From an uncultured Methanosarcinales archaeon (lineage in GTDB: Archaea > Nanobdellota > Nanobdellia > Woesearchaeales > GW2011-AR9), in assembly GCA_964510085.1 (NCBI GenBank), contig CAZEAB010000001.1:5753-69752 (forward strand): a stretch of DNA of 64,000 nt, in the 5' to 3' direction. The position numbers were made by a program, and so were the translations under genes. Numbering within the stretch: the first letter of the stretch is position 1; every line of letters starts with the position of its first letter. Under the pieces are notes generated by a model that saw only the letters and a list, made by a program, of their open reading frames with translations, had not been told where the DNA came from and made no database searches. Positions 7,640 through 26,187 of this stretch are shown here, in pieces.

Positions 7640-7657
7640 GATAGCTATTAAGATAAA

Positions 7658-8565
7658 TTATTCTTTACGTGCAAGAATTACTGTGCTATTTCCAATTTTT
7701 CGAAGTAATCGCCCTTTGCCAGAATCAACCTTCTTTTGAAGATATCTATCTAAAGCATGAAAAAATGAATAAAATATCTTGCTTTTTTTACTTAAGTATC
7801 CTGCACCTTGTGCACTAATAACATTAAGATGTCTTCCTAGTAATGTGTTAAGCCTCTTATATGACCATGCATTTTTCTTTACAAAACCAACAGATTTGTG
7901 ATCTTTATAGTACTTATATTTTTTTGTGATGAATTTTGAAAAAGGACTTAATGAAAATGTTATAAGAAGTGCTGGTTGCAATAAAATTGTGTCTTGCCAT
8001 CTGAATTCATAACGTCGGTTTGAAAGAACATAATAAAGAGACCTAGCCAGCTTAAGTGGTCCATCTAAACTACTAATACCAAACATATTACGTTGACCAA
8101 GAATAAAATGGCCCTTTTTCTTAAGAACGCGAGTAGATTCTAAAACACAACGCCCTGGTTTTTCAAGATATTGCATGAAGCCAAGTCCAATTACACAATC
8201 AAAACTTTCGTCAGGAAATGGTAATTCTTCAACATTTCCTTCAACAAATTTATAGGTCCCTTCTGATTTGATTGAAGCACAGTTTATTCGAGCAATATCA
8301 AGAAGTTTTTGTGATACATCTATACCAACAACAGAATATCCTCTTTGTAAAATTTTTGCCGAAGTAACTCCTGCACCACAACCAAGGTCTAATATTTTTG
8401 CTCCTTTTGGTAATGAAAGGGAATCGAAATACTGAAGTAATTTATTTCACGAGCTCTTAATCTGTTTCCATTATAATTATCTTGCTGATAAAAGTAATCC
8501 CATTGATTCAAATTAATTTCATTGTTCCACTTGTAAACAGAACGATCTAATTGGTTATACCCCAT
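7658..8565 (-). pseudogene. Class-I SAM-dependent methyltransferase interrupted by a 1-nt frameshift near 8447
   Basis: My translation upstream of the listed ORF gives '..KLLQYFDSLSLPKGAKILDLGCGAGVTS..VEELPFPDESFDCVIGLGFMQYLEKPG..', in frame with ORF 7658..8176. That stretch has no ATG and is closed by a TGA at 8447-8449. The natural N-terminus 'MGYNQLDRSVYKWN..RAREI' (ATG at 8565) lies in another frame. Confidence 0.7.
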
Positions 8566-8636
8566 ATTGCATTTTATTAAGGGGTGATATTTAAAGGTTA
8601 TCGAATTAAAGGCTACGTCTGGAATAGAGCGTTTTG

Positions 8637-8707
8637 GTATACTAGCGCCCTGTCGTAGACGAGGCGGGTACTCTGTAAGGGTACGAATCCGCCGTGCTCT
8701 AGTATAC
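8637..8707. other. GC-rich 71-nt imperfect hairpin / multi-stem element in a divergent intergenic region
   Basis: GTATACTAG(8637-8645) pairs with CTAGTATAC(8699-8707). Inner GGCGG/CCGCC and GTAC/GTAC stems. Locally far more GC-rich than the surroundings. Confidence 0.4.
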
Positions 8708-8788
8708 AAATTAGTGTTATTCCGGATGAAGCCTGAATTGAAGATAAAGATACATAACATTTAAAAGAGAAAATGTTAAAGCAAACTG

Positions 8789-9601
8789 ATGATGAATTGG
8801 AAAGAGCTAAAGTATGCATTTAGGGTGTACACACCAAAAAGTATCCTTTTTAACATGGCTTCAATAATTACAAGTGATTTTGTAATTGTATCCTTTCAAA
8901 AATGTGGAAAAACATGGGTACGAGTTATGCTTTCAAAGATTCTTCAGGAAAAATATAACATTAAGAATATTAAACTAAATCTTCAAGAAATGACTTGGTT
9001 TACAAAAGCACCAAACATTCTTATCTCTCATGGCGGAAGTACAAAAGATAATAATAAAATTAAGTTTGAGAAAATATTTAGAAACAAGAAAAAAATTCTT
9101 CTTTGTAGAGATCCACGAGATATTGTAGTTTCATTATTTCATGGTTCTAGAACTAGAGATAAAGTATATGATGGTGACAATATCTCTACATTTATACGAG
9201 ACCCTGCATGTGGTTTTCCAAAAATTATTGCCTTTATGAACAAATGGGCAGAAGAATATCAAAAAAGACCACAAGATTTTATTAGAGTAAGATATGAAGA
9301 TCTCAAAATTGATACAAAAAGTGAATTACAAAAAATGACACAATTTATGGGTATTAACGCGTCAGAAGAACTCTTACATAAAACGGTAGAGTTTGGTTCC
9401 TTTCAGAATATGAGAAAAATGGAAATGAAAGAAGAAATTAATGATTATAGAATGAAATCAGGGGACAAAAATGATCCAAACTCATTCAGAACACGTAAAG
9501 GAAAAGTAGGAGGATATAAGGACGAACTTTCACAAGAAGATCAAGATTATATTAATAATCAAGTGAAAGAAAACCTTGACAGATTTTATGGATATCACTA
9601 A
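8789..9601 (+). CDS. Sulfotransferase-fold protein (PAPS-dependent family)
   Basis: 5'-phosphosulfate-binding loop 'QKCGKTWVRVMLS' (PKSGTTW-like) and 3'-phosphate-binding 'RDPRDIVVSLFH' motif. Confidence 0.8.
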   Translation: MMNWKELKYAFRVYTPKSILFNMASIITSDFVIVSFQKCGKTWVRVMLSKILQEKYNIKNIKLNLQEMTWFTKAPNILISHGGSTKDNNKIKFEKIFRNKKKILLCRDPRDIVVSLFHGSRTRDKVYDGDNISTFIRDPACGFPKIIAFMNKWAEEYQKRPQDFIRVRYEDLKIDTKSELQKMTQFMGINASEELLHKTVEFGSFQNMRKMEMKEEINDYRMKSGDKNDPNSFRTRKGKVGGYKDELSQEDQDYINNQVKENLDRFYGYH

Positions 9602-9615
9602 ATTTTAAAGCCAGA

Positions 9616-11067
9616 TTATTTTTTACTTACTACGTTCGCATTTTTATTAAATATGCTCAGCAAGGTCTTTTTGTCTTCAGATGAAATCTCTTTAATCAAA
9701 AACAATATTCCAAAGTAAAGAATTAAGTAGAGAGCCATTCCAAGAATTACATTATTTAAACTAAAATAATGAGACATAATACCTATAATAACGCAGCTAA
9801 ACAATATATTTCTCAAAGATTTTTGTGGGATTATTCTTCCAAAGAAACGATAGATTACAACAATTGAAATTAAAAGACTGATTAAAGATCCAATTAACAA
9901 AGAAATTCCTGCTCCAATCATCCCTTGCATTGGAATTATAGTATAACTTATCAACACGGTAAAGATTAGAGACACTATGGATATTTTCATTGCTGTTCCT
10001 GGTTTTCCCACCGCAATAAAAAATGAGGCAAAAACCATAACGACAGAAAAAATAAAAAATGCCAAAACTAAGTAAGGAAGTACAGAAGATGCTGGCTGGA
10101 ATACATTAGAATAAAGCAATTCTATTATTGATTTTGAGTTTGTTATAGTAAGAATCACAAACGGTGCTAAAACAAGAAACATATAACGAAAAGATTTTTT
10201 AATATATTTTCTAACTAAGGGCATGTTTTTTGCTTCAAATGCGCTAGAGATAGAAGGGATCATAGTAAATACCAATGCTGAAGCAAGAGTAAAACTTACT
10301 CTTGCTAACGTCGTTGCTGAAGTATAATACCCAATAAGTGCATCATCTACCCAATAATGTTTTAAGAGGAACAATGGAATTTCCAGATTAACTGTGTTGA
10401 AAACATAAAATAAAGAAATAGGTACAGAGAAAAGAAACAGTTTTTTAGTATTTAATGCTAGCGGAGATTTATTCCTTCTAATTCTAAATATATAATATAT
10501 GGCTACAATCGTAGCTAGTAAAGGACCTAAAGCATATCCTGTTAATGCGCCAAGTATCCCATATCCAAAGTAAACTAGTAAAAGAGCAATAATTAATTTC
10601 ATTATAGAATGAAATGCTTCTAATAATGCTTGAGTTCTAAACCTTCTCTTACCTCCAAGATAACCCTTAGTAATAACTACATATGCACTCAAAGGTATCA
10701 AAATAAATGAAGAATAAAACATATTATTTGTTAAACTTGGGTCATTGAAATATCCACTTAACAAACCAGAAAAAAGATAGTAAAGAGCGATACAGATTGC
10801 TGTTAAGATGAACTGTAAATGTAAACCTGATTTCAGAATACCAACATCATTCCATTTTCCTTCTGAAACATATTTTGATACCGACCTGTTTACTCCTGTA
10901 GCAAAAATTGTCTTTGCGATTAGAAAAAAAGATAGTATTAAACCAAAATCACCATAAATAGAAGGCCCCATTAACCTTGCTAAGGCTATATGTACCCCAT
11001 AACCAGATAAAGAGGTTACAAACTGTGCAAGCATAAGAAAAAAAGTACCCCTAACAACAACCCCCAT
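9616..11067 (-). CDS. Polysaccharide/oligosaccharide flippase (MOP/Wzx-like)
   Basis: 483 aa, about 12-14 hydrophobic segments, typical Wzx-like N-terminus; lies in the glycan operon. Confidence 0.7.
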   Translation of the reverse strand: MGVVVRGTFFLMLAQFVTSLSGYGVHIALARLMGPSIYGDFGLILSFFLIAKTIFATGVNRSVSKYVSEGKWNDVGILKSGLHLQFILTAICIALYYLFSGLLSGYFNDPSLTNNMFYSSFILIPLSAYVVITKGYLGGKRRFRTQALLEAFHSIMKLIIALLLVYFGYGILGALTGYALGPLLATIVAIYYIFRIRRNKSPLALNTKKLFLFSVPISLFYVFNTVNLEIPLFLLKHYWVDDALIGYYTSATTLARVSFTLASALVFTMIPSISSAFEAKNMPLVRKYIKKSFRYMFLVLAPFVILTITNSKSIIELLYSNVFQPASSVLPYLVLAFFIFSVVMVFASFFIAVGKPGTAMKISIVSLIFTVLISYTIIPMQGMIGAGISLLIGSLISLLISIVVIYRFFGRIIPQKSLRNILFSCVIIGIMSHYFSLNNVILGMALYLILYFGILFLIKEISSEDKKTLLSIFNKNANVVSKK

Positions 11068-11766
11068 TTATACAATCTCCGTGTTTTTTCTTAGTTGACG
11101 ATAAAATTTTAGAATTAAATCTCCTGGCAGTGCAACCAAATACACCCACAACGAATAATGGGGAAACCCTAACAAAGATGCCCAAAATAAAAAATTAAAC
11201 AAATACTCAATCCTAAGAACCATATACACCACTTTTTTCCACGATGATATATGCTGAGACTTTATTGAAAAATTCATGAAGTTATGGCGACTTTTCTCCG
11301 AATACCAAAGAGGATTTAAGGTAATTGCTTTATTTAGAAGAAAAAAAAATGCACAAGCTATACCAATAACAATGTAAATCAAGTCAGAAGTATATCTGGC
11401 ACAACCAATACCCAACATTATAAACATCAAAGGGTTTGCAACATAATGGCCAACATAGTCTAAGTATACTCCTAAATTGCTTTGTTGTTTACGAAACCTA
11501 GCCATGATCCCATCCGTACAATCTAGCACGAAAAACAATTGAAACAATAATACTGAAAGAAATATTGATTTTTTTGTTCCAAAAATAGAAATACAAGAGG
11601 ATAAAATTTGTCCAATTATCCATATTACTGTTACTTGATTTGCAGTTATATTTGTAAATAAAAATATTTTTGCAGGGTAATATGCCAAGTAATCAACTAG
11701 AGAGTATAATAAATCTCCTCTTTTAACATATGTTTTTTCTTTAATTTCTTGTATTGAAAAAGTCAT
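11068..11766 (-). CDS. CDP-alcohol phosphatidyltransferase family membrane protein
   Basis: 'LDCTDGIMARF...GVYLDYVGH' matches DxxDGxxAR...GxxxD; the last Asp position reads His. Multi-pass membrane protein. Confidence 0.7.
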   Translation of the reverse strand: MTFSIQEIKEKTYVKRGDLLYSLVDYLAYYPAKIFLFTNITANQVTVIWIIGQILSSCISIFGTKKSIFLSVLLFQLFFVLDCTDGIMARFRKQQSNLGVYLDYVGHYVANPLMFIMLGIGCARYTSDLIYIVIGIACAFFFLLNKAITLNPLWYSEKSRHNFMNFSIKSQHISSWKKVVYMVLRIEYLFNFLFWASLLGFPHYSLWVYLVALPGDLILKFYRQLRKNTEIV

Positions 11767-11767
11767 T

Positions 11768-12433
11768 TTATCCTCTCATTACTAGATTTTTTACTAAGCC
11801 CATATATTTCTTTTCAAAACCAATAGTACAATTTCCTTGCTCTAGGTGGAATTGAACTGCTAAAATTTTTTTATTCAAATTAAAAATGCCTTCAATTTCT
11901 CCATCATCTGAAAAAATGAATGGGGTTAACCCACTTCCCAAAACATCAATTACTTTTCTGTGGTAACTATTAACGCTAGCTTTATTTATTCCTAACAAAC
12001 CTGTGATAGTTACATTATGTATATTAATATGTTTTCTAAAGACAAACCTCTTTGCTAGTGCAGATGTTAGAAATTTAATATTTCGCTTGCTATGGTTCTC
12101 ATTCCATTTAAGAGTACCTCCAAAAAATCCGTTTATACTCCACATCCCACAACAAACACCAAATAGTGGGAGGTTATTTTTAATAGCAAAGTCTATTGCT
12201 TTTAATTCAAATTTTCTAATTTCTTTAGTATAATATTGGTAACCTCCTGAGATTAGTAGTGCTTTAATACCAAGACTCTTAAAGAAATTATTAAAATCAA
12301 TATCTTCATGAAATGGGATCATTATTAATTCATAGCCATAACGTTTCCAAAAATCAACATATTTCTTTTCAATACAAAAAAAAGAACCGTCCTTATTAGA
12401 CATGTGCCTTGGAGTTATTGCTATCTTAATCAT
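11768..12433 (-). CDS. Second peptidase C26 / class-I GATase-like hydrolase
   Basis: 'GVCCGMWSINGFFGG' nucleophile elbow and 'VQFHLE'. I prefer the ATG at 12433 (MIKIAITP..), which removes the overlap with the upstream gene. Confidence 0.7.
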   Translation of the reverse strand: MIKIAITPRHMSNKDGSFFCIEKKYVDFWKRYGYELIMIPFHEDIDFNNFFKSLGIKALLISGGYQYYTKEIRKFELKAIDFAIKNNLPLFGVCCGMWSINGFFGGTLKWNENHSKRNIKFLTSALAKRFVFRKHINIHNVTITGLLGINKASVNSYHRKVIDVLGSGLTPFIFSDDGEIEGIFNLNKKILAVQFHLEQGNCTIGFEKKYMGLVKNLVMRG

Positions 12434-12965
12434 TTTTTTTACATATAAATAAAAGGTTATTTGCAAAATAGTGTCTAAAAATATTGTTAATAAAATTTTT
12501 TGACTTACGCATCCCCTTAAATTTTTTTATAATTCTATAATTATAACATGAAATTAAATAACTTAATGTATGCTCACAATACCAACAGGTGTGAAATTTA
12601 TTACATTTAAACGGGAGATAGCCAATTGATCTTGCATTTGGAGTTACAATAACCAATAACCCATCTTTTTTTAGATGACGAGACATATTTTCTAAGAATT
12701 TCCCTGGGTTGTGGATATGTTCAATTACATCTCCTGCAATAATAACATCAAATCTTTTTTTAAATGAAATGTTCTCTGCATTTCCTTTAATAATCTCTGG
12801 AGAGTTGCTTTCAATATCAACACCAACTACAGAATTTGCTCTCATTTTTATTTTTGAGTACAATGTCTTTGGTTTTATCAATGAGCCTTGCTCAGCACAA
12901 CTTCCAATATCTAAAACATTTTTTCCTTTTACAATATTTAGTATATAGTCTTCACAACTTTTCAT
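12426..12965 (-). CDS. Class-I SAM-dependent methyltransferase
   Basis: 'VLDIGSC' motif I-like, 'VIIAGDVIEHIHNP' motif, 'GLLVIVTPN'. Confidence 0.7.
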   Translation of the reverse strand: MKSCEDYILNIVKGKNVLDIGSCAEQGSLIKPKTLYSKIKMRANSVVGVDIESNSPEIIKGNAENISFKKRFDVIIAGDVIEHIHNPGKFLENMSRHLKKDGLLVIVTPNARSIGYLPFKCNKFHTCWYCEHTLSYLISCYNYRIIKKFKGMRKSKNFINNIFRHYFANNLLFICKKND

Positions 12966-14676
12966 TTTGTTGCCTCCAATATCCTAATTTTTGTGTAAAA
13001 AAACTTAACCCCAATAGAGGAATCATAATAAATAATTTAGGACTTCTCCAATATTTTTTAATCATATTTTTCGTACTCCACACACGGAGTTTGTAAAATG
13101 AACCAAGTGAACTTACATGTTGTTTAAAAAAATAACTTCCCCTCCCCCGTGTGTAATGCCAGTGTAAGAACGTCTTTAAATCTTTTCTGGGTTTATGATA
13201 CATAATCATTTGTGAGTTATATTTTATTTTAAGTCCATTTTCAAGAACTTTCATTGAAAGATATACATCATCCCCTGTAATTGTTAATTTCTCATTAAAC
13301 GCACCAAAACCAAGGATTGTTTCCTTTTTGAAAGCACAATTACCACCGGCTAAATGGTCTGTGTAACCTTCTTTACTAACATGCCACATATTTTCAAAAC
13401 CAAGATGGGCACCCCCAGGATATCCTAATCCAGAGATACAATCCCCAAGAAATGTTGAATGAGGTATTTTGGTATTTCCCGTAACAACAGTTTCTCCTTT
13501 TGTGTGTATTTGATTGTAAATTTCCTCAACCCAATTTGGTGATGCATAACAATCCGCATCAATAATTGCAACAATGTCTGCTTTGGAATTTGTAATTCCT
13601 ACATTTCTCGCTGCTGATAATCCTTGATGTTCCATGTCAATGACACGAGCTCCGTTCTTTCTTGCTATCTCTGCAGTCGCATCGGTAGAACCATCATTAG
13701 CTACTACAATTTCAAAGTCTGTAAATGATTGTTTTTTAAGAGAATCAAAAATTTTTTGTATACAACTTGCTGCATTATATGCACAAATTACTACTGAAAC
13801 CTTTGGTCGTTGCATACTAACTATTGTTTTCTGTAACCCTTGTTGTAACGTTGTTGTTGGCTTCCAATCTAGTTCTTTACTAATTTTTTCAATAGAGAAT
13901 ACACTTCTTTCTATGTCTCCTTCACGTTCTTCTTCATGCTTTGGTTTTATTTTAGTTCCAATGTTTGATTGAATTTTGTTAAATAGTTCTACTATGGTTA
14001 TTTCTTCTCCAGAGCCTACATTATATTGCCCCTCTCCCTTTTCTAAAGCCAAGACTATTACTCTCACAACATCACTTACATACACAAAATCCCTTGTTTG
14101 ATTCCCAGAACCAAAAATAAGAGGTGTTTTATTCTGTAACAACGCATGTGTAAATATTGCGACAACGCCACCCTCTCCAGAAAAATCCTGACCAGGACCA
14201 TAAACATTAGCTAAACGAAGTGAGATGTATGGAACCGTTGACTTTTTAAGTAATTGATAAAACTTATTTTTATTTGTACCATAAGGAGATACTGGATTAC
14301 ACGGATGTTCTTCATTTATAGGAAACTGGTATGGTTGACCAATTTCAGCTGCTGTATTTGTATAAATAAATTTCTTTACATTATATTTTTCTGCTAATCT
14401 TAACACATTAAGACTTCCTTCAAGATTTGTCTTTCTATCAAAATCTGGGTCTAATACTGAATTTGGAACACTTGTTTGAGCTGCAAGATGTATTACAGAA
14501 TCTACAGGAAATAGTCTTTCAATTTCTGGTGAGATTATGTCTTGAATAAAATATTTTGCTCTTTTATTATTACCTGTAAATAAATCTACTACTATTACCT
14601 CATGACCTTGCTGAACTAACTTGTTAACTACATGAGTTCCAATAAACCCGGCTCCTCCGGTTACAAGGATTCTCAT
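12952..14676 (-). CDS. Fusion: NAD-dependent nucleotide-sugar epimerase/dehydratase (N) + family-2 glycosyltransferase (C)
   Basis: 'MRILVTGGAGFIGTH' Rossmann motif, 'YGTNK' YxxxK; the C-terminal half has 'VSVVICAYNAA..', 'VANDGSTD', 'IIDADCY' GT2 motifs. Confidence 0.85.
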   Translation of the reverse strand: MRILVTGGAGFIGTHVVNKLVQQGHEVIVVDLFTGNNKRAKYFIQDIISPEIERLFPVDSVIHLAAQTSVPNSVLDPDFDRKTNLEGSLNVLRLAEKYNVKKFIYTNTAAEIGQPYQFPINEEHPCNPVSPYGTNKNKFYQLLKKSTVPYISLRLANVYGPGQDFSGEGGVVAIFTHALLQNKTPLIFGSGNQTRDFVYVSDVVRVIVLALEKGEGQYNVGSGEEITIVELFNKIQSNIGTKIKPKHEEEREGDIERSVFSIEKISKELDWKPTTTLQQGLQKTIVSMQRPKVSVVICAYNAASCIQKIFDSLKKQSFTDFEIVVANDGSTDATAEIARKNGARVIDMEHQGLSAARNVGITNSKADIVAIIDADCYASPNWVEEIYNQIHTKGETVVTGNTKIPHSTFLGDCISGLGYPGGAHLGFENMWHVSKEGYTDHLAGGNCAFKKETILGFGAFNEKLTITGDDVYLSMKVLENGLKIKYNSQMIMYHKPRKDLKTFLHWHYTRGRGSYFFKQHVSSLGSFYKLRVWSTKNMIKKYWRSPKLFIMIPLLGLSFFTQKLGYWRQQNEKL

Positions 14677-15947
14677 CTACCCACCCCATAATAGGTAAAT
14701 CCATTTGTTTGATTTTTGTGGTATATATTTCTGCCATCAAATAATACTTTATCTACCATGGTGTTACTTAATTCTGCAAAATTTATGTTTCTAAATTCAT
14801 CCCATTCCGTTGCAAGAATAATTGCGGATGCTCCGTTGGCCGCCTCTTGTGGTGAAGAATGATGAATAATTCTATCCCCAAATGATGTATTTGAAACAAT
14901 TGGATCATATACATTAACTCTAGCTCCATTATCTAATAGCCATTGAATTAAAAGAAATGAAGGTGCTTCTCGTACATCACTTGTCTTTGGTTTAAAACTT
15001 AAACCCCATACGGCAAAAGTCTTTCCTTGAATATGGCCAAAATGGTTTTGTATCTTTGTTGCAAGTATCTGTTTTTGTCGTTTGTTTAAATAATCTACTT
15101 CATGTAGTAATTTTGCTTCATAGCCCTTATTCTTTGCTACTGTTACTAACGCCCTAATATCCTTTGGGAAACAGCTTCCTCCATATCCAATACCTGCATT
15201 TAAAAATTTTGGACTTATTCTATAATCATTTCCCATCGCTTTTGATACCGTTTTAATATCGGCTCCAACAGTATCACAAATATTTGCAATTTCATTAATG
15301 AAACTAATCTTTGTTGCAAGAAATGAGTTGTTTGCATACTTTATCATTTCACTTGTTTCCCAATTTGTTTCAATTACTGGTAAATAAGGTCTTGCTAATC
15401 CAGAATACATCTTTCTAACAAGTTGAGTTGCTTCTTGGTTCTGTGAACCAATTACAATCATATCTGGATGTGTAAAATCATGAACGGCATTCCCCTCTTT
15501 AAGAAATTCTGGATTTGAAATAATATGTGTTTCAGAAGTTGGATTAATTTGTCTTATTCGTTCCTGGCAGTGATTAGCAGTTCCGGGAGGCACAGTACTT
15601 TTGTTAATAAGAACTTTAAATCCGCTTGACTTTGCAACAGTGTCAACTACAGATAAGACATATTGCAGATTAGCACTTCCATCTTCTGCCATTGGTGTTC
15701 CAACACAATTGAAAATAATTGGTTTAAGTGCTAAAGAAGTATCTGTAGAAAAATGTAATCTCCCCTTATTCTTATTTCTTTGAACTAACTCTTTCAGCCC
15801 AGGTTCATAGAATGGAATTTGTCCATTTTGAAGAGATTCAATCTTATTTTGATCAATATCTACACAATATACGGAGTGCCCAAGGTCTGCTAAACATGCA
15901 CCTGTTACAAGACCAACGTATCCAGTACCAAAAATACCTATTTCCAT
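14673..15947 (-). CDS. ugd: UDP-glucose 6-dehydrogenase
   Basis: 'IGIFGTGYVGLVTGACLA' and catalytic 'GGSCFPKD' motif; 424 aa. Confidence 0.9.
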   Translation of the reverse strand: MEIGIFGTGYVGLVTGACLADLGHSVYCVDIDQNKIESLQNGQIPFYEPGLKELVQRNKNKGRLHFSTDTSLALKPIIFNCVGTPMAEDGSANLQYVLSVVDTVAKSSGFKVLINKSTVPPGTANHCQERIRQINPTSETHIISNPEFLKEGNAVHDFTHPDMIVIGSQNQEATQLVRKMYSGLARPYLPVIETNWETSEMIKYANNSFLATKISFINEIANICDTVGADIKTVSKAMGNDYRISPKFLNAGIGYGGSCFPKDIRALVTVAKNKGYEAKLLHEVDYLNKRQKQILATKIQNHFGHIQGKTFAVWGLSFKPKTSDVREAPSFLLIQWLLDNGARVNVYDPIVSNTSFGDRIIHHSSPQEAANGASAIILATEWDEFRNINFAELSNTMVDKVLFDGRNIYHKNQTNGFTYYGVGR

Positions 15948-16001
15948 AGGTAAAATTGACTATAACGAGGTTAAAAAGGTTATGCAAAACAAGGAGTACT
16001 A

Positions 16002-16739
16002 TTATTCTTCCAAATACTCTATTTCTTCCTCAGAAACTCGTCTCACGGGCTTCTCAAACTTCAGTTCTTCATATGCCTGTGCTACTAATCCTGGAGTTCT
16101 TCCTATAATAAAAATACCTTTACCTAAAAGAGGGTCAAATCCCCAGTCAGATAATAAAATGGCAATTAATCCATCAACATTCATGTGAATTTTCTTACCC
16201 TTAACTTCTTCAAATGCTTGCTCTATTGCATCTTTGAAATGCAGATTCTGAGATGCATATCCTATTTCATTCATGGTTTTTAACAGCCATTGAACTCGAG
16301 GATCTCCTTGTTTGTAATGTTTATGACCAATCCCATAAATAACTTCACGATTGGTTAACATTTCTTTAAATTTTGATAATAGTTCATCTTTTGATACATC
16401 TTTAAGGGACGCAATCATCTTCATAGCATTTTCCATAGCACCACCATGATAATTTCCAATGCTTAATATCCCACCACCTACAGCTGTATTAAGTGAATTT
16501 CCACCAGAAGCTACAAATCGTGTAGCCATGCTTGAAGTCGTACCCATTCCATGATCAATAACACATGTAAGAATTTTTTCAAATAAGATACTCTCCTTTT
16601 CATTCGGCTTCCTTCCAGATAACTCTAAGAAAACTGCGTCTGTAAACCTACCTTGAATTAAACTAGACAATTTCTCTCCTCGAATGTCTACATCATTCTC
16701 TTCTATCTTTGATATTCTTGTTTTAAATTGCATTTTCAA
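16002..16739 (-). CDS. Citrate-synthase-fold protein of the citryl-CoA lyase / ATP-citrate-lyase C-terminal type
   Basis: 'HGGAMENA', 'GIGHKHYKQGDPRV', 'NVDGLIAILL', 'GRTPGLVAQAYEE'. At 245 aa it is shorter than a true citrate synthase. Confidence 0.65.
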   Translation of the reverse strand: MKMQFKTRISKIEENDVDIRGEKLSSLIQGRFTDAVFLELSGRKPNEKESILFEKILTCVIDHGMGTTSSMATRFVASGGNSLNTAVGGGILSIGNYHGGAMENAMKMIASLKDVSKDELLSKFKEMLTNREVIYGIGHKHYKQGDPRVQWLLKTMNEIGYASQNLHFKDAIEQAFEEVKGKKIHMNVDGLIAILLSDWGFDPLLGKGIFIIGRTPGLVAQAYEELKFEKPVRRVSEEEIEYLEE

Positions 16740-17619
16740 GCGCTTCTTTCATTAACTTACCAACATTGTGATGTACTTCTGCTATAATAACCCCTGCTTC
16801 TTTAAGAAGTTTTACTTTATTTTTTCGAGTTCCTTTATCTCCCTCAATAATAGCGCCAGCATGTCCCAAGGAAACATTATGAATTTTATACTTCTCAACA
16901 AATACTCCTGAGATAAAAGCCACAATAGGTTTTGTAAATTTTTTCTTCATCAAATACGCTGCAAGTTCTTCTTCAGCAGTTCCACCAATTTCCCCAAATA
17001 AAACTATCCCTTTCGTTTCTGGATCTTGTTCAAATTCATCCATTAATTCAGCAAACGTTGTTCCCATAATAATATCTGCACCAATCCCTAATACAGTAGA
17101 TTGTCCTAACCCTGCTTGTTTCAAAACAAGTGATGTTTCACACGCCATTCCACCACTTCGTGAAATCACTCCAATTGAACCAGGAGTAAACGCAATCTTT
17201 GACTTCCCACCTGCAATGGCACCACATTTTGATTTTCCAACGGAATAAATACCAACAGATGTTGCACCAATAATCCTACTTTCTTTCTGCTCTGCTAATG
17301 CAAAACAATATGCCATATCATGAACTGGAATATTTTCAGTAATAATATTAATTAACTTGATACCTGCTTCAATTGCTTCAACAATTGCCCCTTTTGCAAA
17401 TTTTGGTGGTACTAAAATAACTGTTGCATCAACTTCTGGAGCTTCTGAAATACTGTTAAATACAGGAACACCAAACACTTCCTGCCCACCTTTCCCGGGG
17501 GTTACTCCTGCAATAACCTTTGAACCTGCTTGTAACATCTCATCGCACGTTCTCTGTCCTTGCTTTCCAGTAATTCCCTGAATAAGGAATCTTGTATTTT
17601 CATTAATCAGTATTGCCAT
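16723..17619 (-). CDS. Succinyl-CoA synthetase alpha / citryl-CoA synthetase small-subunit-like (CoA-binding, phosphohistidine)
   Basis: 'FLIQGITGKQG', 'GVTPGKGG', 'SRSGGMA', and the phosphohistidine loop 'LGHAGAII'. Confidence 0.8.
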   Translation of the reverse strand: MAILINENTRFLIQGITGKQGQRTCDEMLQAGSKVIAGVTPGKGGQEVFGVPVFNSISEAPEVDATVILVPPKFAKGAIVEAIEAGIKLINIITENIPVHDMAYCFALAEQKESRIIGATSVGIYSVGKSKCGAIAGGKSKIAFTPGSIGVISRSGGMACETSLVLKQAGLGQSTVLGIGADIIMGTTFAELMDEFEQDPETKGIVLFGEIGGTAEEELAAYLMKKKFTKPIVAFISGVFVEKYKIHNVSLGHAGAIIEGDKGTRKNKVKLLKEAGVIIAEVHHNVGKLMKEALENAI

Positions 17620-19579
17620 AATTAATCCCTTTATAGTTCTTATATTTTTTTATTATTTCACTATGAATAAAGCCATTTGTTACAACTATACCATTTTTAT
17701 GAGATACATCTTTTGTATTGTACAATAATTCATTGCCTTCTAAATCAGTTATCATACCTCCTGCTTCTGTAATTATAATAGATGAAGCAGCAGTATCCCA
17801 TTGATTCATTTTATCAGTAGTTGTTAAATATAATTCGGCATCTCCTTCTGAAACTGCAATTACCTTAACGCTACTCCCTTTTGGACTCCATTCCTTAAGG
17901 GATAAATTTTGAAAAAATTGTTTTTCATATTCTATTAAATGACTTCTACTAACAACGGCTTTAGAATCAGATATGTCATTTATATCGCTAACCTTAAGAT
18001 GCCTCCATCTTCCATCTTTATATTGATATGCCCCCTTACCTTTTTGTGCTACACAAATACGATTTACAGCCGGTTGATATATTACTCCTAGAAAACACCT
18101 TCCTTCCTCAATTAGTCCAATCATAATAGTAAATTCATCATTCTTTTTTATAAAATCAGAAGTGCCATCAAGAGGATCAATTATCCAAATTCTACTATGA
18201 TTTAATCTATTTCCGTCATCCTTTATTTCTTCTGAAAGAATGGGGTAATTTGTTTTAGAGAGATGATTTATTAATATGGTGTTACTAGCAATGTCCGCTT
18301 CAGTTAAAGGTTCTTTTTTATCCTTGTAGGACACAGAAAATCCTTCATGGTATATCTTCATCATTGCATTACCTGCTTCTAAAGCTGCATCTACTGCAAT
18401 AGATGCTTCGGCAGATAATTGAGGCATTTCTGAATTTATTTTATAATTGTTTGATAATTCTACCATTTCTTTTGCTGTTTCTGTTAATGGAGTTTTATCA
18501 TCAAAGTAATGTATATCTAATCCGTGCTCTTCTTTTGCTTTCATCATAGCGTCTCGAGCTTTTTCCCATTCAACTCCAACTCTTCTTATTAAAATTGGAA
18601 ACGTAGGTTTCTTTTCAATTAAGACATTCAGAACCCCTTGTAATGTTTCATAAATATTAGTGAAATTAGCAACAACTCCTGCAACCAGTAAACCTTTTAA
18701 TCCTTCTTTCTCTAATACAATTCTTGTTAACTTTTCAACTTTCTCTTGGGGAGGATTTCCACTATATTCAGTTAAATTTGCTGGTTTACCCCCAAATTCT
18801 ATTAACGCATCCATCAAAGTCATAGTAGCGCCACCACCAGATGTAAGAATTGCAATATCACCATCCAAATCAATAAATGTCTTACCAGCAACACCTCTAT
18901 GATCATCTTTATCAATTAATCTCGCTCTAATTTCTCTATCTGTTGCTTTTCTATTATCAGTTCTTTCTTCAAATGGAATCTTCCATCGATGTTTTGCATC
19001 ATCATCTAATACAACAACTGCATCAACAGCAATGTACGAATTGTGAGATTGTACTAATGGGTTTATTTCAATCATACGACAATCATTCTCAATAAAACAA
19101 GTGTATAGTTTCTTCATCAATTCAATTAATTGAGGGTTCTCTGTTGGAAATTCTGTTAGACCTTTCAAATAATCAATTTCAATAGTCTTAATCTTACCTG
19201 TTTCACGAAGTTCTTCAATATCCACTCCACCTTCTTCACTAAAAATAAGAACTGGTTTTCGTGTACTGGTATCAAACATCATTCCTAAATACAGTTCATT
19301 TTCAATATTGATTTTTTCGTCGAGAAGTATTTCGGAGATTTCTTCGTTAAGAAAAGTATTTCCTAAGAATTGTTCTGCAACATGTTTTGCTTGTCCTTTG
19401 CTTGATACAGGGATTATTCCTCCAGCTTTTCCCCTACCACCAGCAAGAGTTTGCACTTTGAGGATTTTTTCTTCTGAGAATTCTGATATTTCAGAACTGT
19501 TTTTTATTAATATTCCCTTACTTATTGGAATACCTGCTGAAGAAATAACTTGTTTTGATTCAAATTCCTTTAGTTTCAT
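17603..19579 (-). CDS. Fusion: SucC / citryl-CoA synthetase large-subunit-like ATP-grasp (N) + CysQ/inositol-monophosphatase-family 3'(2'),5'-bisphosphate nucleotidase domain (C)
   Basis: N-terminal half: 'MKLKEFESKQ', 'QTLAGGRGKAGG', 'TSGGGATMTLMDAL..GGKPANLTEYSG'. C-terminal 260 aa: 'LSEE', 'WIIDPLDGTSDF', 'WDTAASSIIITEAGG' IMPase/CysQ metal-binding motifs. Confidence 0.8.
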   Translation of the reverse strand: MKLKEFESKQVISSAGIPISKGILIKNSSEISEFSEEKILKVQTLAGGRGKAGGIIPVSSKGQAKHVAEQFLGNTFLNEEISEILLDEKINIENELYLGMMFDTSTRKPVLIFSEEGGVDIEELRETGKIKTIEIDYLKGLTEFPTENPQLIELMKKLYTCFIENDCRMIEINPLVQSHNSYIAVDAVVVLDDDAKHRWKIPFEERTDNRKATDREIRARLIDKDDHRGVAGKTFIDLDGDIAILTSGGGATMTLMDALIEFGGKPANLTEYSGNPPQEKVEKLTRIVLEKEGLKGLLVAGVVANFTNIYETLQGVLNVLIEKKPTFPILIRRVGVEWEKARDAMMKAKEEHGLDIHYFDDKTPLTETAKEMVELSNNYKINSEMPQLSAEASIAVDAALEAGNAMMKIYHEGFSVSYKDKKEPLTEADIASNTILINHLSKTNYPILSEEIKDDGNRLNHSRIWIIDPLDGTSDFIKKNDEFTIMIGLIEEGRCFLGVIYQPAVNRICVAQKGKGAYQYKDGRWRHLKVSDINDISDSKAVVSRSHLIEYEKQFFQNLSLKEWSPKGSSVKVIAVSEGDAELYLTTTDKMNQWDTAASSIIITEAGGMITDLEGNELLYNTKDVSHKNGIVVTNGFIHSEIIKKYKNYKGINYGNTD

Positions 19580-20285
19580 AATATCTCCTTGATTCCTCTA
19601 ATTGGTCTATGCTTCCAATATCAAACCACTTTCCAATAACGTTCTTTCCATAAACAGTTTCCCTTTCAGATAAAAAGCTTATGAAATTACCCGGACTATC
19701 CCACTTATTTTCCTTAAGAGCTTCTGAGAACATGCAAAGATGATCTTTTGTTAAACCATAAACTAATGTAGAAGCTAAAGTTGATTCCGGTTGTTCTGGT
19801 TTCTCAACAAAATTAGATATTTGATTCTGTTCATTTAATGATACAATCCCCAACTTTTTTGCTAATTCTATATCTTTAACATCATTAAGTAATATTGAAG
19901 AACCTTTCTCTTGGAAAAATTGAATGAACTCTGTAAGATTATCTTCAAACAAATTATCCCCTCCTATAACCAATAAATCATCTTGAATATTATGTTGTTT
20001 TACAACAAATTCCATGTCCCCAATAGAACCTAATCTGTCTTCATTTGAATTAGTATTATCATTTACTAATGTAATGTTTTGATATGGATTCTTTTGTAAC
20101 CATTCACTAAATTGTGGGTAGAAAAAGTTATTTGTTACCACAAATATTTCATCCACCATTTGTAACTTATCTAAGATATGTCCTAAGATTGCCTTTCCAC
20201 CTACTTCCAGAAGCGGTTTAGGGGTGTTTAATGTTAATGGATATAGCCTAGTTGCGTATCCTGCACAAAGGATTAGTGCTTTCAT
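19560..20285 (-). CDS. Sugar-1-phosphate nucleotidyltransferase
   Basis: 'MKALILCAGYATRLYPLTLNTPKPLL' signature; first gene of the long minus-strand operon. Confidence 0.8.
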   Translation of the reverse strand: MKALILCAGYATRLYPLTLNTPKPLLEVGGKAILGHILDKLQMVDEIFVVTNNFFYPQFSEWLQKNPYQNITLVNDNTNSNEDRLGSIGDMEFVVKQHNIQDDLLVIGGDNLFEDNLTEFIQFFQEKGSSILLNDVKDIELAKKLGIVSLNEQNQISNFVEKPEQPESTLASTLVYGLTKDHLCMFSEALKENKWDSPGNFISFLSERETVYGKNVIGKWFDIGSIDQLEESRRYYETKGI

Positions 20286-21129: not shown

Positions 21130-21243
21130 AGTGGACAGCTTACCAATTTTCCCGCGAAACGCAGTACACATTGATACGGAAACGGTCTTAACTGCCAGGT
21201 TCGAGATGTGTCTGGGTGAACCCCGCCCCTATGGCCGTCCGAT
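21130..21243 (-). rRNA. rrf: 5S ribosomal RNA
   Basis: The minus strand reads GGACGGCCATAGGGGCGGGGTTCACCCAGACACATCTCGAACCTGGCAGTTAAGACCGTTTCCGTATCAATGTGTACTGCGTTTCGCGGGAAAATTGGTAAGCTGTCC. It carries archaeal 5S hallmarks (GGCCATAG, CATCTCGAAC, AGTTAAG, GTACTG, GGGAAA). Helix I is GGACGGC/GCTGTCC. It is followed by a T-run, ends are +/- 3 nt. Confidence 0.85.
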
Positions 21244-25770: not shown

Positions 25771-25822
25771 TTTGTTTATCTCCTTGATTATTTTTTTATT
25801 TTATATATCTTACTTAAAAAAG

Positions 25823-25913
25823 GCCTGTTATCGAGAATTGAACTCGAACTTCTAGAGGGCTGTATAGAAATAAATATCACAGTCTAGCGTGCTACCTTTA
25901 CACTATAACAAGC
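25823..25913 (-). tRNA. tRNA-His(GUG), AU-rich acceptor stem, 19-nt intron at 37/38, no encoded CCA
   Basis: Manual fold. G-1; acceptor CUUGUUA/UAACAGG (U2-G71); U8; D arm GUGU/GCAC with GG. Anticodon stem CUAGA/UCUAG, loop CU-GUG-A|intron|C. 4-nt variable loop. T arm UCGAG-UUCAAUU-CUCGA; C73. Intron segment TATACAG pairs with the anticodon loop. Confidence 0.75.
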
Positions 25914-26070: not shown

Positions 26071-26187
26071 TGGGGCGACCGCCGAGAATTGAACTCGGAT
26101 CTCAAGCTTTCCGCAGGAAAGTTCCAAAAGTTAATGGACTTTTGATATTCCACAGGCTTGAATACTAACCGTTATACCACGGTCGCC
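26071..26187 (-). tRNA. tRNA-His(GUG), GC-rich acceptor stem, 41-nt intron at 37/38, encoded CCA
   Basis: Manual fold. G-1; acceptor GCGACCG/CGGUCGC; U8; D loop AACGGUUA. Anticodon stem CAAGC/GCUUG, loop CU-GUG-G|intron|A. 4-nt variable loop. T arm CCGAG-UUCAAUU-CUCGG; C73-CCA, followed by a T5 run. Confidence 0.8.

Follow-up and report, generated by a model that had tools for sequence, protein, structure and literature searches.

Why should a reduced DPANN archaeon carry what look like the genes of a citrate-splitting enzyme inside a glycan operon, and why should one of these genes be fused to a nucleotidase of the CysQ type? We addressed this question for a 64-kb stretch of DNA (hereafter the window), in which the first-pass annotation had described three consecutive, overlapping minus-strand ORFs; their coordinates proved to be exactly as described, and the motifs WIIDPLDGT, WDTAA, and GHAGAII are all present in the translations. 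Our explanation, which is probably correct as a whole, is that the three genes encode a citrate-splitting trio that would provide acetyl-CoA for glycans, while the CysQ fusion would close a PAPS cycle. The relevant features of the window, with functions predicted from sequence, are as follows (CCS, citryl-CoA synthetase; CCSL and CCSS, its large and small subunits; CCL, citryl-CoA lyase):

4878-7124, plus strand: pyruvate-kinase-barrel::PUA::ATP-sulfurylase fusion (NF003166, 439 bits vs cutoff 387)
7121-7639, plus strand: APS kinase (TIGR00455, 185 bits vs cutoff 139)
8789-9601, plus strand: PAPS-dependent sulfotransferase, convergent with the operon end (PF00685, 92.8 bits)
9616-11067, minus strand: Wzx/MurJ-type flippase
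11068-11766, minus strand: CDP-alcohol phosphatidyltransferase
11768-12466, minus strand: class-I glutamine amidotransferase
12426-12965, minus strand: methyltransferase
12952-14676, minus strand: epimerase::GT2 fusion
14673-15947, minus strand: UDP-glucose 6-dehydrogenase (TIGR03026, 454 bits vs cutoff 190)
16002-16739, minus strand: CCL, short citrate-synthase fold (NF004869; 245 aa from TTG 16739)
16723-17619, minus strand: CCSS, 298 aa, CoA-binding domain and phosphohistidine loop SLGHAGAII (PF02629, PF00549)
17603-19579, minus strand: CCSL::CysQ fusion gene, 658 aa
17603-18427, minus strand: CysQ-type 3'(2'),5'-bisphosphate nucleotidase module, residues 385-658 (PF00459, 170 bits)
18428-18439, minus strand: four-codon linker INSE at the fusion junction, in frame and without a stop codon
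18440-19579, minus strand: CCSL module, residues 1-380, ATP-grasp and ACL-type citrate-binding domain (PF08442, PF16114)
19560-20285, minus strand: sugar-1-phosphate nucleotidyltransferase, 241 aa, first gene of the operon (PF00483, 113 bits)

Identity of the Trio

The trio is very probably a Hydrogenobacter-type system that carries out the ATP-citrate-lyase reaction in two steps, with the large and small subunits of CCS accompanied by CCL. Its domain matches have E-values of 1e-22 to 1e-88, and chance matching is not an issue. The Pfam domains of the 658-aa protein are ATP-grasp_2 (residues 2-176, 124 bits), Citrate_bind (PF16114, residues 234-371, 80.7 bits, cutoff 26.8), which stands in place of Ligase_CoA, and Inositol_P (residues 392-647, 170 bits). 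The large subunit scores below the cutoffs of both SucC models (217 < 375.6 and 208 < 370), and its best solved structure is 6HXQ_B, the large subunit of H. thermophilus CCS, at 198.8 bits versus 135.7 for the best SCS-beta. As to citrate versus succinate, a choice for which the first-pass annotation had pointed to the substrate-binding residues, the equivalents of the ACLY citrate site are conserved: EYSG, ANFTN, and RRxG of the large subunit align with ACLY G309, N346, T348, and R379, and these positions are invariant across the family (alignment A1).

The product of the third gene, described earlier as a short protein of the citrate-synthase fold, indeed aligns with the citrate-synthase model over the C-terminal part alone (153-353 of its 357 positions), and at 233 bits it exceeds the cutoff of 212 for NF004869, the curated model of citryl-CoA lyase. 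Its best structure is 6HXP, the H. thermophilus CCL (185.5 bits versus 61.7 for the best citrate synthase), with which its motifs HGGA, GHKHYK..DPR, NVDG, and IGRTPG are aligned, the His/His/Asp/Arg motifs being conserved. An alternative start at ATG 16733, as called in the related locus L004, would give a protein of 243 aa. The small subunit is below the SCS-alpha equivalog cutoffs (294 < 336), its GHAGA loop is conserved, and its gene sits between those for CCSL and CCL in 80 of 80 loci. Hence the proposal of a CCS/CCL arrangement rather than ordinary SucCD is borne out by Citrate_bind, NF004869, and the best matches to 6HXQ_B and 6HXP. The accompanying caution that the subunits might group with SCS applies to the small subunit, which is slightly nearer SCS-alpha (2YV2, 253 bits) than CcsB (6HXQ_A, 210 bits), but not to the large subunit or CCL, both of which match CCS/CCL best. 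Ordinary SucCD is disfavored for the trio by the failed SucC models, the Citrate_bind domain, and the CCS/CCL best structures.

Among known systems, CcsA/CcsB and Ccl of Hydrogenobacter thermophilus (6HXQ, 6HXP) have the same three-protein architecture with separate genes, and share with the trio the citrate-binding domain, the phosphohistidine loop, and the lyase catalytic residues. Unlike that system, the window trio belongs to a reduced DPANN archaeon, lies inside a glycan operon, and gives no indication of an rTCA context, and its large subunit has a C-terminal CysQ; moreover, its small subunit lacks the C-terminal extension of CcsB (298 aa versus 353 aa) and is nearer SCS-alpha, and its citrate loop is ANFT, as in ACL, rather than ANNT. 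ATP-citrate lyase (AclAB; eukaryotic ACLY) has its overall chemistry and citrate-site residues in common with the trio; however, its CoA-binding small subunit and its lyase module form one fused protein, whereas the window lyase is a separate gene. SucCD belongs to the same superfamily and has a very similar small subunit, but its large subunit has DIGGG/NIFGGIT/MRVAG where that of the window has EYSG/ANFTN/RRxG.

The Operon and the PAPS Cycle

The first-pass annotation had placed the trio in an 11-gene operon with continuous overlaps from 20285 to 9616. This span holds 10 ORFs. CCL (16002) and the dehydrogenase (15947) are 54 nt apart, and at 11766/11768 and 11067/11068 the neighboring ORFs abut without overlap; the other overlaps stand, including one of 20 nt between the nucleotidyltransferase stop and the start of the large-subunit gene. 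From this layout we predict that, in this Woesearchaeota-like archaeon, the trio shares a transcript with the genes for a sulfated, uronic-acid-containing glycan and is coupled to them in translation. The top curated matches of the nucleotidyltransferase are rmlA_long, AglF, and Arch_glmU, all below cutoff. Twelve close Woesearchaeota loci have an orthologue of it at 40-73% identity, which in four of them immediately precedes CCSL. The dehydrogenase scores 454 bits against TuaD, 374 against AglM, and 190 against UDP-ManNAc dehydrogenase, and is matched by UDP-glucose dehydrogenases in the PDB at 393 bits.

The CysQ module scores best against TIGR01331 of all IMPase-family models (196.7 bits, below the 228.8 cutoff), has the Bacteroides CysQ 3B8B as its best structure, and has close relatives that are fused to APS kinase or sulfotransferase. 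It has in common with CysQ of E. coli and Bacteroides the fold and all the metal-ligand motifs (LSEE, DPLDGT, and WDTAA), the loss of which the first-pass annotation had considered. Since the window has an ATP sulfurylase, an APS kinase, and a sulfotransferase, the module would in all likelihood hydrolyse the pAp from the sulfotransferase at 8789-9601 and so complete a PAPS cycle for which the window has all the genes, in agreement with its earlier assignment to that cycle. In contrast to the known CysQ fusions to APS kinase, the partner here is a CoA ligase subunit, outside the PAPS cycle.

Gene Neighborhoods and the Proposed Role

Members of the trio family occur in 421 species genomes from DPANN and CPR. 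We compared 80 species loci; since these are phylogenetically related, their counts are higher than the number of independent events. The gene order CCSL-CCSS-CCL is conserved in 77, and nucleotide-sugar or glycan genes lie near the trio in 56, none being seen near it in the other 24. An acetyltransferase is encoded within -7/+9 kb in 40 of the 80 loci, and in 31 of those 40 an acetyl-CoA-dependent enzyme of the GNAT or GlmU type lies no more than 1.5 kb upstream. There are several architectures: CCSL may follow a stand-alone GlmU acetyltransferase domain or a bifunctional GlmU of the archaeal type, or it may end the series GlmU-N, GlmS, HAD, YvcK, GNAT, CCSL. Archaeal trios adjoin either UDP-Glc or UDP-ManNAc dehydrogenases, UppP, and STT3, or a GT4 HexNAc-1-P transferase, a GT2, and a deacetylase; a GNAT is nearby in just 2 of 18 close archaeal loci. 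The UDP-glucose dehydrogenase, to which the first-pass annotation had drawn attention, is present beside the trio, but this link is clade-specific (12/18 close loci, 0/62 distant loci). While the trio was already known from DPANN and CPR, its glycan/acetyltransferase neighborhood appears to be new.

In the proposed mechanism, the large (ATP-grasp and citrate-binding) and small (CoA-binding, phosphohistidine) subunits would convert citrate, ATP, and CoA to citryl-CoA, which CCL would split into acetyl-CoA and oxaloacetate. The earlier suggestion of a glycan link through acyl-CoA supply gains comparative support from the 80 related loci. The related genomes suggest acetyl-CoA supply for cell-envelope sugars rather than carbon fixation, and we infer, with the chances about evenly balanced, that the trio turns scavenged citrate into acetyl-CoA for the biosynthesis of the envelope and of nucleotide sugars; running a reductive TCA cycle is less likely. 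Eukaryotic ACLY is a biosynthetic supplier of acetyl-CoA, the same role as that proposed here. Several observations run counter to this role: the window dehydrogenase is predicted to act on UDP-glucose and not on an acetamido sugar, there is no acetyltransferase gene in the operon or in the whole 64-kb window, few of the close archaeal loci have a GNAT nearby, and 24 of the 80 loci have no glycan gene near the trio.

It is unlikely that the trio serves ordinary central carbon metabolism (rTCA citrate cleavage or anaplerosis) and that genome compaction placed it in a glycan operon by chance. This is the context in which CCS/CCL of DPANN and CPR have so far been read (PMC8091004; bioRxiv 10.1101/2022.10.25.513756; PMC11606122), and it is consistent with the fully canonical look of the enzymes and with the 24 loci that have no nearby glycan gene. 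However, the same literature finds few of these taxa to have complete TCA or rTCA gene sets (PMC8091004; bioRxiv 10.1101/2022.10.25.513756), and no TCA gene (aconitase, IDH, MDH, OGOR, or fumarase) was found among the recurrent neighbor clusters of the 80 loci or in the window. The position of the acetyltransferase is also strongly non-random, and the glycan/acetyltransferase association recurs in different architectures and in two domains.

The CysQ Fusion

The fusion of the SucC-like protein to CysQ is genuine and not an assembly artefact, because the identical 658-aa protein is encoded on seven contigs (NCBI, JGI, ENA, and Logan), one of them from an independent Logan assembly of SRR8062318, with no stop codon at the junction. 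Searches of 1.84 billion representatives and 5.8 billion clusters gave no second or diverged example, and the fusion is apparently unique to one population; the first-pass annotation knew of no such fusion, and there is no described or database example outside the window's population. Comparison with 30 unfused homologues shows that the large-subunit module has kept the whole of its ancestral C-terminal tail (...MVELSNNYK), which is followed by INSE and then by the CysQ module, beginning at its own Met and ending in ...YGNTD and the stop codon. The final 17 nt of the module overlap the start of the small-subunit gene, an overlap that is kept despite the fusion.

In the closest relative, L001 (88% identity), a stand-alone CysQ gene overlaps the orthologous sulfotransferase gene, the sulfotransferases being 83% and the CysQs 47% identical to those of the window; no such CysQ gene is present at the corresponding window site. 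A relative at 69% identity has a separate, unfused CysQ gene between both subunit genes, the likely precursor of the fusion; the order CCSL, 5 nt, CysQ, overlap, CCSS is that of the P0006/P0007 lineage. In the unfused relative L093, the equivalent of the junction is KEK-TAA and a 5-nt spacer, out of frame. Based on these arrangements, a cysQ gene may have ended up between the genes for the two subunits, the position that the unfused copy of a relative occupies to this day. Loss of the stop codon and spacer in the window lineage would then have created a 74-kDa bifunctional protein, whose CysQ would functionally replace the stand-alone cysQ retained next to the sulfotransferase gene in the nearest relative. 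The large-subunit C-terminus would be naturally tolerant of extensions. A HAD phosphatase domain is fused to this same C-terminus in P0092 and P0076, and SuhB-like IMPase genes adjoin the trio in L075 and L008.

Most likely, the fusion reflects co-expression within one glycan island and not substrate channelling between the two activities. The first-pass annotation had seen in it a physical link between the trio and the PAPS cycle; CysQ does belong to that cycle, but the fusion alone shows no coupling, because it is confined to one population and the CysQs of relatives are separate (beside the sulfotransferase or between the subunit genes). Mechanistic coupling of the pAp phosphatase and the CoA ligase is quite unlikely. 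Under it, the tethered CysQ might remove pAp, a mimic of the 3'-phospho-ADP moiety of CoA that would compete at the CoA site, or might act on a CoA-derived 3'-phosphonucleotide. Two lineages that are not sisters have CysQ at precisely the CCSL/CCSS boundary, as a fusion in the window and as a gene of its own in P0006/P0007, a hint that co-expression may not be the whole story, and the P0006 trio has no sulfotransferase within 11 kb downstream; the phosphatases of P0092, P0076, L075, and L008 would fit as well. On the other hand, the L075 and L008 genes and the P0092 HAD domain belong to different phosphatase families, most family members have no nearby phosphatase, the nearest relative has its CysQ beside the sulfotransferase instead, diverged copies of the fusion are lacking, and the complete PAPS cycle in the window by itself explains CysQ.

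Further Alternatives

ATP-citrate lyase is reported to run as an ATP-conserving citrate synthase in Desulfobacter, and the trio could similarly work in reverse, from acetyl-CoA and oxaloacetate via citryl-CoA to citrate and ATP. The reactions are reversible in principle, flux direction is not readable from sequence, and fermentative members of DPANN and CPR depend on substrate-level phosphorylation. We nevertheless consider this direction very unlikely, as co-transcription with acetyl-CoA-consuming acetyltransferases would make the two activities work against one another and no citrate-using aconitase or IDH gene lies in any of the neighborhoods.

It is highly improbable that, as the first-pass annotation also suggested, the SucCD-like pair activates another carboxylate (glycan-linked or a sugar acid) for transfer onto the glycan. 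The genes do adjoin a uronic-acid-forming dehydrogenase in a glycan operon, and scores below the SCS cutoffs imply a specificity that is not that of SucCD; yet the four ACLY citrate-site positions are conserved here and throughout the family, and the pair is accompanied (77/80 loci) by a CCL with an intact catalytic set that passes the curated model, a lyase that has no acyl-transfer role and is sensible solely with citryl-CoA or a very close analogue as the intermediate. Finally, that the fusion arose by misassembly or sequencing error and the two proteins are really separate is barely conceivable, for although the seven copies are identical, could derive from related samples, and have no diverged counterpart, the same ORF came from four independent assembly sources, the junction differs from that of an unfused relative by a different 12-nt sequence replacing 17 nt and not by a single-base error, and both halves are full length with their motifs intact.

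Layout of the Window and the Trio Operon

The window is archaeal and AT-rich (~33% GC); it encodes eRF1, ribosomal protein S3Ae, the thermosome, Cbf5 and SecY, and the closest relatives of its proteins are found in Woesearchaeota and Nanoarchaeota MAGs. The three consecutive minus-strand ORFs reported in the first-pass annotation were confirmed, with each overlap being 17 nt. We refer to their products as the trio, comprising the putative large and small subunits of citryl-CoA synthetase (CCS), CCSL and CCSS, and a putative citryl-CoA lyase, CCL.

17603-19579 (-): CCSL::CysQ, 658 aa; ATP-grasp domain, PF16114 citrate-binding domain and a full-length inositol-monophosphatase-family domain
16723-17619 (-): CCSS, 298 aa; CoA-binding and CoA-ligase domains, SucD-like, with an SLGHAGAII loop
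16002-16739 (-): CCL, 245 aa; similarity to citrate synthase limited to the C-terminal two-thirds of the latter

The trio belongs to a minus-strand operon running from 20285 down to 9616, which also encodes a sugar-1-phosphate nucleotidyltransferase, UDP-glucose 6-dehydrogenase, an epimerase::GT2 fusion, a methyltransferase, a glutamine amidotransferase, a CDP-alcohol phosphatidyltransferase and a flippase. This operon had been described as 11 genes joined by continuous start/stop overlaps. We found 10 ORFs, some of whose junctions merely abut rather than overlap, and there is one exception to both arrangements, a 54-nt gap after CCL.

Identity of the Trio

The trio is very probably a citryl-CoA synthetase/citryl-CoA lyase, a biochemical identity predicted from profile matches, solved structures and conserved site residues. 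The best solved structure for CCSL was the large subunit of Hydrogenobacter thermophilus CCS (6HXQ_B, 198.8 bits), as compared with 135.7 bits for the best SCS-beta structure and 134 for Chlorobium ACL-beta, and its homologs carry the JGI label "citryl-CoA synthetase large subunit". CCSL matched PF08442 (124 bits) and PF16114 (Citrate_bind; 80.7 bits, cutoff 26.8), and a Pfam search of the 658-aa protein gave no match to PF00549 (Ligase_CoA), Citrate_bind being present instead. When the C-terminal domain alone was aligned with human ACLY (3MWD_A, on which the numbering was checked), the residues that we take from Sun et al. (2010) to be the ACLY citrate site, G309, N346, T348 and R379, aligned with G274, N305, T307 and R333 of the window protein. 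These residues sit in the motifs EYSG, ANFTN and RRxG, at positions where SCS-beta has DIGGG, NIFGGIT and MRVAG, and all four were invariant in an alignment of 14 family members.

The CCL passed the curated model NF004869 (233.2 bits, cutoff 212) and scored 185.5 bits against the H. thermophilus CCL (6HXP), versus 61.7 bits for the best citrate synthase. It covers positions 153–353 of the 357 in PF00285, which corresponds to a citrate-synthase fold without the N-terminal ~150 residues, and it retains the catalytic His/His/Asp and the oxaloacetate-binding Arg, with HGGA, GHKHYK..DPR, NVDG and IGRTPG all aligning with 6HXP. In ATP-citrate lyase (AclAB or ACLY) the lyase module is fused to the CoA-binding subunit, whereas in the window CCSS and CCL are separate, overlapping genes. 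Because the lyase is a separate gene, the arrangement is that of CCS/CCL and not of ACL.

CCSS matched PF02629 (84.7 bits) and PF00549 (65.8 bits), and its SLGHAGAII aligns with the SCS-alpha phosphohistidine loop, RMGHAGAII. Its best PDB matches were to SCS-alpha (253 bits, versus 210 for CcsB), and we assign it as a CCS subunit because of its partners, as it is flanked by CCSL and CCL in 80 of 80 related loci. A SucCD identity was rejected because both subunits missed the corresponding cutoffs (CCSL, 217 against 375.55 for TIGR01016 and 208 against 370 for NF001913; CCSS, 294 against 336 for NF004230 and 293 against 353 for TIGR01019) and because Citrate_bind replaces Ligase_CoA. The CCS/CCL identity proposed in the first-pass annotation is thus largely upheld by the structure matches, the conserved citrate-site residues and the NF004869 result, but its secondary suggestion, that a SucCD-like pair activates a carboxylate, is very unlikely to be right. 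The trio enzymes are of known kinds, and the presence of the family in DPANN and CPR genomes is already known.

The CysQ Module and a Local PAPS Cycle

The C-terminal module of the fusion matched PF00459 over positions 6–267 of 271 (170 bits), with the metal-ligand motifs LSEE, DPLDGT and WDTAA intact. TIGR01331 was by far the best of the IMPase-family models (196.7 bits, below its cutoff of 228.8; positions 6–248 of 250), as compared with 127 bits for HisN and 74 for SuhB, and the best structure was 3B8B, a Bacteroides protein annotated as CysQ. In a library of 1.84 billion proteins, relatives of the module were found fused to APS kinase (P0138, P0140, P0206 and P0244) and, in the 810-aa P0209, to a capsule-synthesis domain and a sulfotransferase. 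A further CysQ fusion in public data, P0255, joins a nucleotidyltransferase to CysQ (506 aa). The remainder of the PAPS cycle is encoded in the window:

4878-7124 (+): ATP sulfurylase fused to a pyruvate-kinase barrel; NF003166 439 bits, cutoff 387
7121-7639 (+): APS kinase; TIGR00455 185 bits, cutoff 139; 4-nt overlap with the ATP-sulfurylase gene
8789-9601: sulfotransferase

Based on the CysQ relatives and the presence of the rest of the cycle in the window, the best explanation of the module is that it serves a local sulfation pathway as its pAp phosphatase, and we predict this function with high confidence. The earlier linking of the CysQ half to the PAPS cycle was therefore largely right, given the ATP sulfurylase, APS kinase and sulfotransferase genes at 4878-9601. 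In the window, a DPANN archaeon is seen to encode both a sulfated-glycan island and a PAPS cycle that is self-contained.

The 748-aa ATP-sulfurylase fusion comprises a pyruvate-kinase barrel (residues 3–320, 241 bits), PUA_2 and ATP sulfurylase, and such a pairing of pyruvate kinase with ATP sulfurylase is unusual. Through this fusion, sulfate activation might be coupled to ATP regeneration driven by PEP.

Reality and Origin of the CCS::CysQ Fusion

The identical 658-aa protein was found on seven contigs (from NCBI, JGI, ENA and Logan), one of which is an independent Logan assembly of SRR8062318 in which the gene order is unchanged, and we consider it virtually certain that the fusion is real. 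It is also so far the only one of its kind in our searches. The best 120 CCSL homologs are all unfused (378–434 aa), except for two with a C-terminal HAD domain. Neither a second CCS::CysQ fusion nor a diverged copy of it was found in an exhaustive phmmer search of 1.84 billion representatives with the entire fusion as query, in a search of the CysQ half against 5.8 billion clusters, or with a junction-spanning query over metagenome contigs. One apparent junction-spanning match, P0150, is actually a tandem double CysQ of 552 aa.

Unfused CCSL homologs end in MVELSxxYK followed by a variable tail of 3–40 residues that is often lysine-rich. In the window, the complete tail MVELSNNYK is followed by four codons, INSE, and then by a full CysQ starting from its own Met; the CysQ end of the gene overlaps the CCSS start by the usual 17 nt. 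The P0006/P0007 lineage (69% identity) has a separate 276-aa Inositol_P gene placed exactly between the CCSL and CCSS genes. It starts 5 nt past the CCSL stop (YKKEK, stop, caaaa, ATG), is out of frame with CCSL, overlaps CCSS by 17 nt, and its N-terminus belongs to the CysQ family of the window module. This arrangement is the unfused precursor of the fusion, the 17-nt stop-plus-spacer of the unfused relative corresponding to 12 nt without a stop in the window. The fusion together with its unfused precursor is new, and the pair is a clean natural example of how translationally coupled genes fuse when the stop codon separating them is lost.

The window and P0006/P0007 are not sisters in a neighbor-joining tree of the large subunits, and in their respective nearest relatives (P0001–P0004; and P0005, P0009, P0010 and P0013) CCSS directly follows CCSL. 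Together, the non-sister placement and the CysQ-less nearest relatives imply either two independent placements of cysQ at this junction or a single gain and four or more losses. The CysQs of the window and the P0006 lineage are 41% identical, over the N-terminal fragment available (49 codons from the L093 DNA).

The simplest reading of the fusion is one of co-expression followed by loss of the stop and spacer. The trio would be the constant core of the glycan island of this clade, and a cysQ gene that landed inside this core would be co-expressed with the sulfated-glycan genes. In one population the stop codon and spacer would then have been lost, fusing cysQ to CCSL, whose naturally extendable C-terminus would tolerate CysQ as it does the HAD domain in P0092 and P0076.

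Two other origins were considered and discarded. The closest relative, L001 (88% identity), has a syntenic operon with a 378-aa CCSL and a 280-aa CysQ that overlaps the orthologous sulfotransferase gene at the far end of the operon, and this ~830-nt CysQ gene is absent from the matching site in the window. The fused CysQ is not a relocated ortholog of this stand-alone gene, as the two CysQs are only 47% identical, as compared with 83% for the sulfotransferases and 88% for CCS. An in-frame insertion retaining the last five CCSL codons was dropped, since it is the overlap with the CCSS start that sets the YGNTD-stop tail, and the full ancestral MVELSNNYK is present.

Phosphatases at the Trio Operon

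Phosphatases recur at the trio operon: two non-sister lineages have CysQ at the CCSL/CCSS junction, HAD domains are fused to CCSL in others, and SuhB-like genes abut the trio in L075 and L008. A second reading of the fusion is that CysQ serves the citrate-cleaving CoA ligase as a functional accessory, the mechanistic link being pAp in the role of a CoA mimic. CoA has pAp as its 3'-phospho-adenosine core, so that in a heavily sulfating cell pAp could block the CoA site of the synthetase; a tethered or co-translated CysQ would then prevent such a blockage, or would act on a 3'-phosphonucleotide derived from CoA. Selection for such an accessory, if real, would explain why CysQ lies exactly at the CCSL/CCSS junction in two non-sister lineages, why it is fused in one of them, and why HAD and SuhB-like phosphatases are repeatedly attached to or abut the operon. 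We regard this mechanistic link as unlikely, and favor co-expression with subsequent loss of the stop and spacer.

P0092 (L008 7361-9046) and P0076 (44% identity) are CCSLs with a C-terminal HAD-family phosphatase domain at residues ~392–549, and the genes that follow in the L008 operon encode CutA1, CCL, a SuhB-like IMPase and a GNAT. The HAD domain of P0092 has no similarity to the HAD of the CPR GlmS operons, so a Rosetta-stone link between them was rejected. The IMPase genes of L008 and L075 were likewise rejected as additional CysQ–CCS links, as they are SuhB-like with 28–29% identity.

The trio neighborhood of another woesearchaeotal locus, L007 (15269-19206), includes an ACPS phosphopantetheinyl transferase, carrier-protein domains, an AMP-binding enzyme, a MaoC dehydratase and a 2-oxoacid-dehydrogenase acyltransferase, a set that constitutes a small CoA- and carrier-dependent acyl pathway. 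The ACPS reaction releases pAp from CoA.

Trio Neighborhoods across DPANN and CPR

CCS/CCL homologs in DPANN and CPR genomes have already been reported, always as rTCA genes (PMC8091004; bioRxiv 10.1101/2022.10.25.513756; PMC11606122), in organisms mostly without the rest of the rTCA cycle (PMC8091004; bioRxiv 10.1101/2022.10.25.513756). We assembled 80 species-level loci from 421 matched genomes, spanning Woesearchaeota, Nanoarchaeota, Iainarchaeota, Nanohaloarchaea and many CPR phyla, and clustered all ORFs within -7/+9 kb of the trio without prior labels. The loci are phylogenetically related rather than independent and the counts in this section are raw; with that reading, the gene order CCSL-CCSS-CCL is kept in 77 of the 80, and at least one nucleotide-sugar or glycan-type neighbor is present in 56.

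The most frequent neighbors beyond the trio are nucleotidyltransferases (38 of 80 loci), followed by small GNAT acetyltransferases (21), GlmU-type left-handed-beta-helix acetyltransferases (19), and GlmS, nucleotide-sugar dehydrogenases and the UDP-GlcNAc-binding regulator YvcK (12 each; for YvcK, TIGR01826 211 bits, cutoff 196); GT2 enzymes occur in 8 loci, and STT3 and HAD proteins in 7 each. There were no TCA-cycle genes among the recurrent neighbors of the 80 loci. An acetyltransferase is present somewhere in the 16-kb span in 40 loci, and in 31 of these (31/80) an acetyl-CoA-dependent acetyltransferase is encoded no more than 1.5 kb upstream of CCSL. The upstream gene varies in kind: in Curtissbacteria it is a stand-alone GlmU acetyltransferase domain (GlmU positions 249–438) or a divergent GNAT, in Daviesbacteria-like genomes an archaeal-type bifunctional GlmU, and Magasanikbacteria-like genomes have GlmU-N, GlmS, HAD, YvcK and GNAT, in this order, ahead of the trio. 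Several loci stand back to back with what we take, by eye, to be the mraZ-rsmH cell-wall cluster.

Two patterns were seen in archaea. In the first, either a nucleotidyltransferase and UDP-glucose dehydrogenase flank the trio, which is the arrangement of the clade of the window (L001, L005, L007, L010, L012, L015 and L019), or a UDP-ManNAc-dehydrogenase-type enzyme (4R16 283 bits, versus 138 for UDP-glucose dehydrogenase) precedes the trio and is translationally coupled to it, with UppP and STT3 downstream. In the second, the genes downstream of the trio encode a GT4 HexNAc-1-P transferase, GT2, DUF2304 and a polysaccharide deacetylase. Linkage to UDP-glucose dehydrogenase is confined to close relatives (12 of 18 close loci and 0 of 62 distant ones).

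We rejected the possibility that one orthologous NTP-transferase group lies upstream of CCSL in both DPANN and CPR, as orthologs of the window gene occur only in 12 close archaeal loci and the CPR genes are GlmU-derived. The CPR GlmU itself is apparently split into genes for a stand-alone acetyltransferase (~204 aa) and a stand-alone uridylyltransferase (~254 aa) in L037, L040 and L048 (Curtissbacteria) and in L072, L079, L080, L084, L085 and L089, some of which have an operon of GlmU-N, GlmS, HAD, YvcK and GNAT immediately before the trio.

A Proposed Biosynthetic Role for Citrate Cleavage

That citrate cleavage is embedded in nucleotide-sugar and glycan operons across the family appears to be new. 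It is routine to record CCS/CCL and aclAB matches from CPR and DPANN genomes as "rTCA / carbon-fixation potential". Based on their glycan-type neighbors (GlmU acetyltransferase domains, GNATs, GlmS, YvcK, UDP-sugar dehydrogenases, STT3 and GT4), the trio neighborhoods point to a biosynthetic role, the provision of acetyl-CoA for amino-sugar and envelope-glycan synthesis, and not to the rTCA cycle. We infer that the trio is a biosynthetic source of acetyl-CoA because acetyl-CoA is the one metabolite common to citrate cleavage and the neighboring pathways; eukaryotic ACLY has this same role. This acetyl-CoA-supply role for envelope sugars is, judged from the neighborhoods, about as likely as not. 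The first-pass suggestion of glycan synthesis through acyl-CoA supply is plausibly right in light of the 80 loci, but in the window it meets the difficulty that no acetyltransferase is encoded in the operon or in the whole 64 kb, and the dehydrogenase present is the UDP-glucose enzyme. If the biosynthetic reading is true, CCS/CCL genes would be read differently in metabolic reconstructions, these ultra-small symbionts would depend on host or environmental citrate, and their citrate cleavage would be comparable in role to eukaryotic ACLY.

Other Features of the Window

Consecutive large ORFs without any Pfam match are located at 34359-39872 (+; 541, 412, 432 and 453 aa) and 49527-53310 (-; 288, 555 and 397 aa). 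Three further fusions were identified:

12952-14676 (-): epimerase::GT2, NAD-dependent epimerase and GT2 glycosyltransferase, 574 aa
21336-22781 (+): nucleotidyltransferase::phosphomannomutase, 481 aa
26228-27655 (-): CDP-alcohol phosphatidyltransferase, diacylglycerol-kinase catalytic domain and YegS_C, 475 aa

Orthologs of the second in the two closest relatives (L001 7160-8935; L092 6403-8175) are 590–591 aa and contain a mannose-6-phosphate isomerase (cupin) domain in addition. A lone 5S rRNA gene and two tRNA genes, at 21130-21242 (-), 25822-25912 (-) and 26074-26186 (-), were also found, the 5S gene being placed among the glycan genes. Both tRNA genes are unusually long (90 and 113 nt) and presumably contain introns; ARAGORN detected one of the two, with an odd four-base anticodon.

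Three genes at 164-4791 (+) encode a PRK05849 PEP-utilizing enzyme (800 bits, cutoff 501), a C26 amidotransferase and a MobA-like nucleotidyltransferase. They resemble the Campylobacter O-methyl-phosphoramidate pathway genes Cj1418, Cj1417 and Cj1416. The amidotransferase best matches gamma-glutamyl-CDP-amidate hydrolase (98.7 bits, below the cutoff of 250), and a second amidotransferase of the C26 kind lies with a methyltransferase in the operon at 11768-12965 (-). The glycan of this organism may carry phosphoramidate besides sulfate. In L001 a carbamoyltransferase (15775-17463) takes the place of the methyltransferase and amidotransferase at 11768-12965, such that glycan-decorating enzymes are swapped between populations that are 88% identical.
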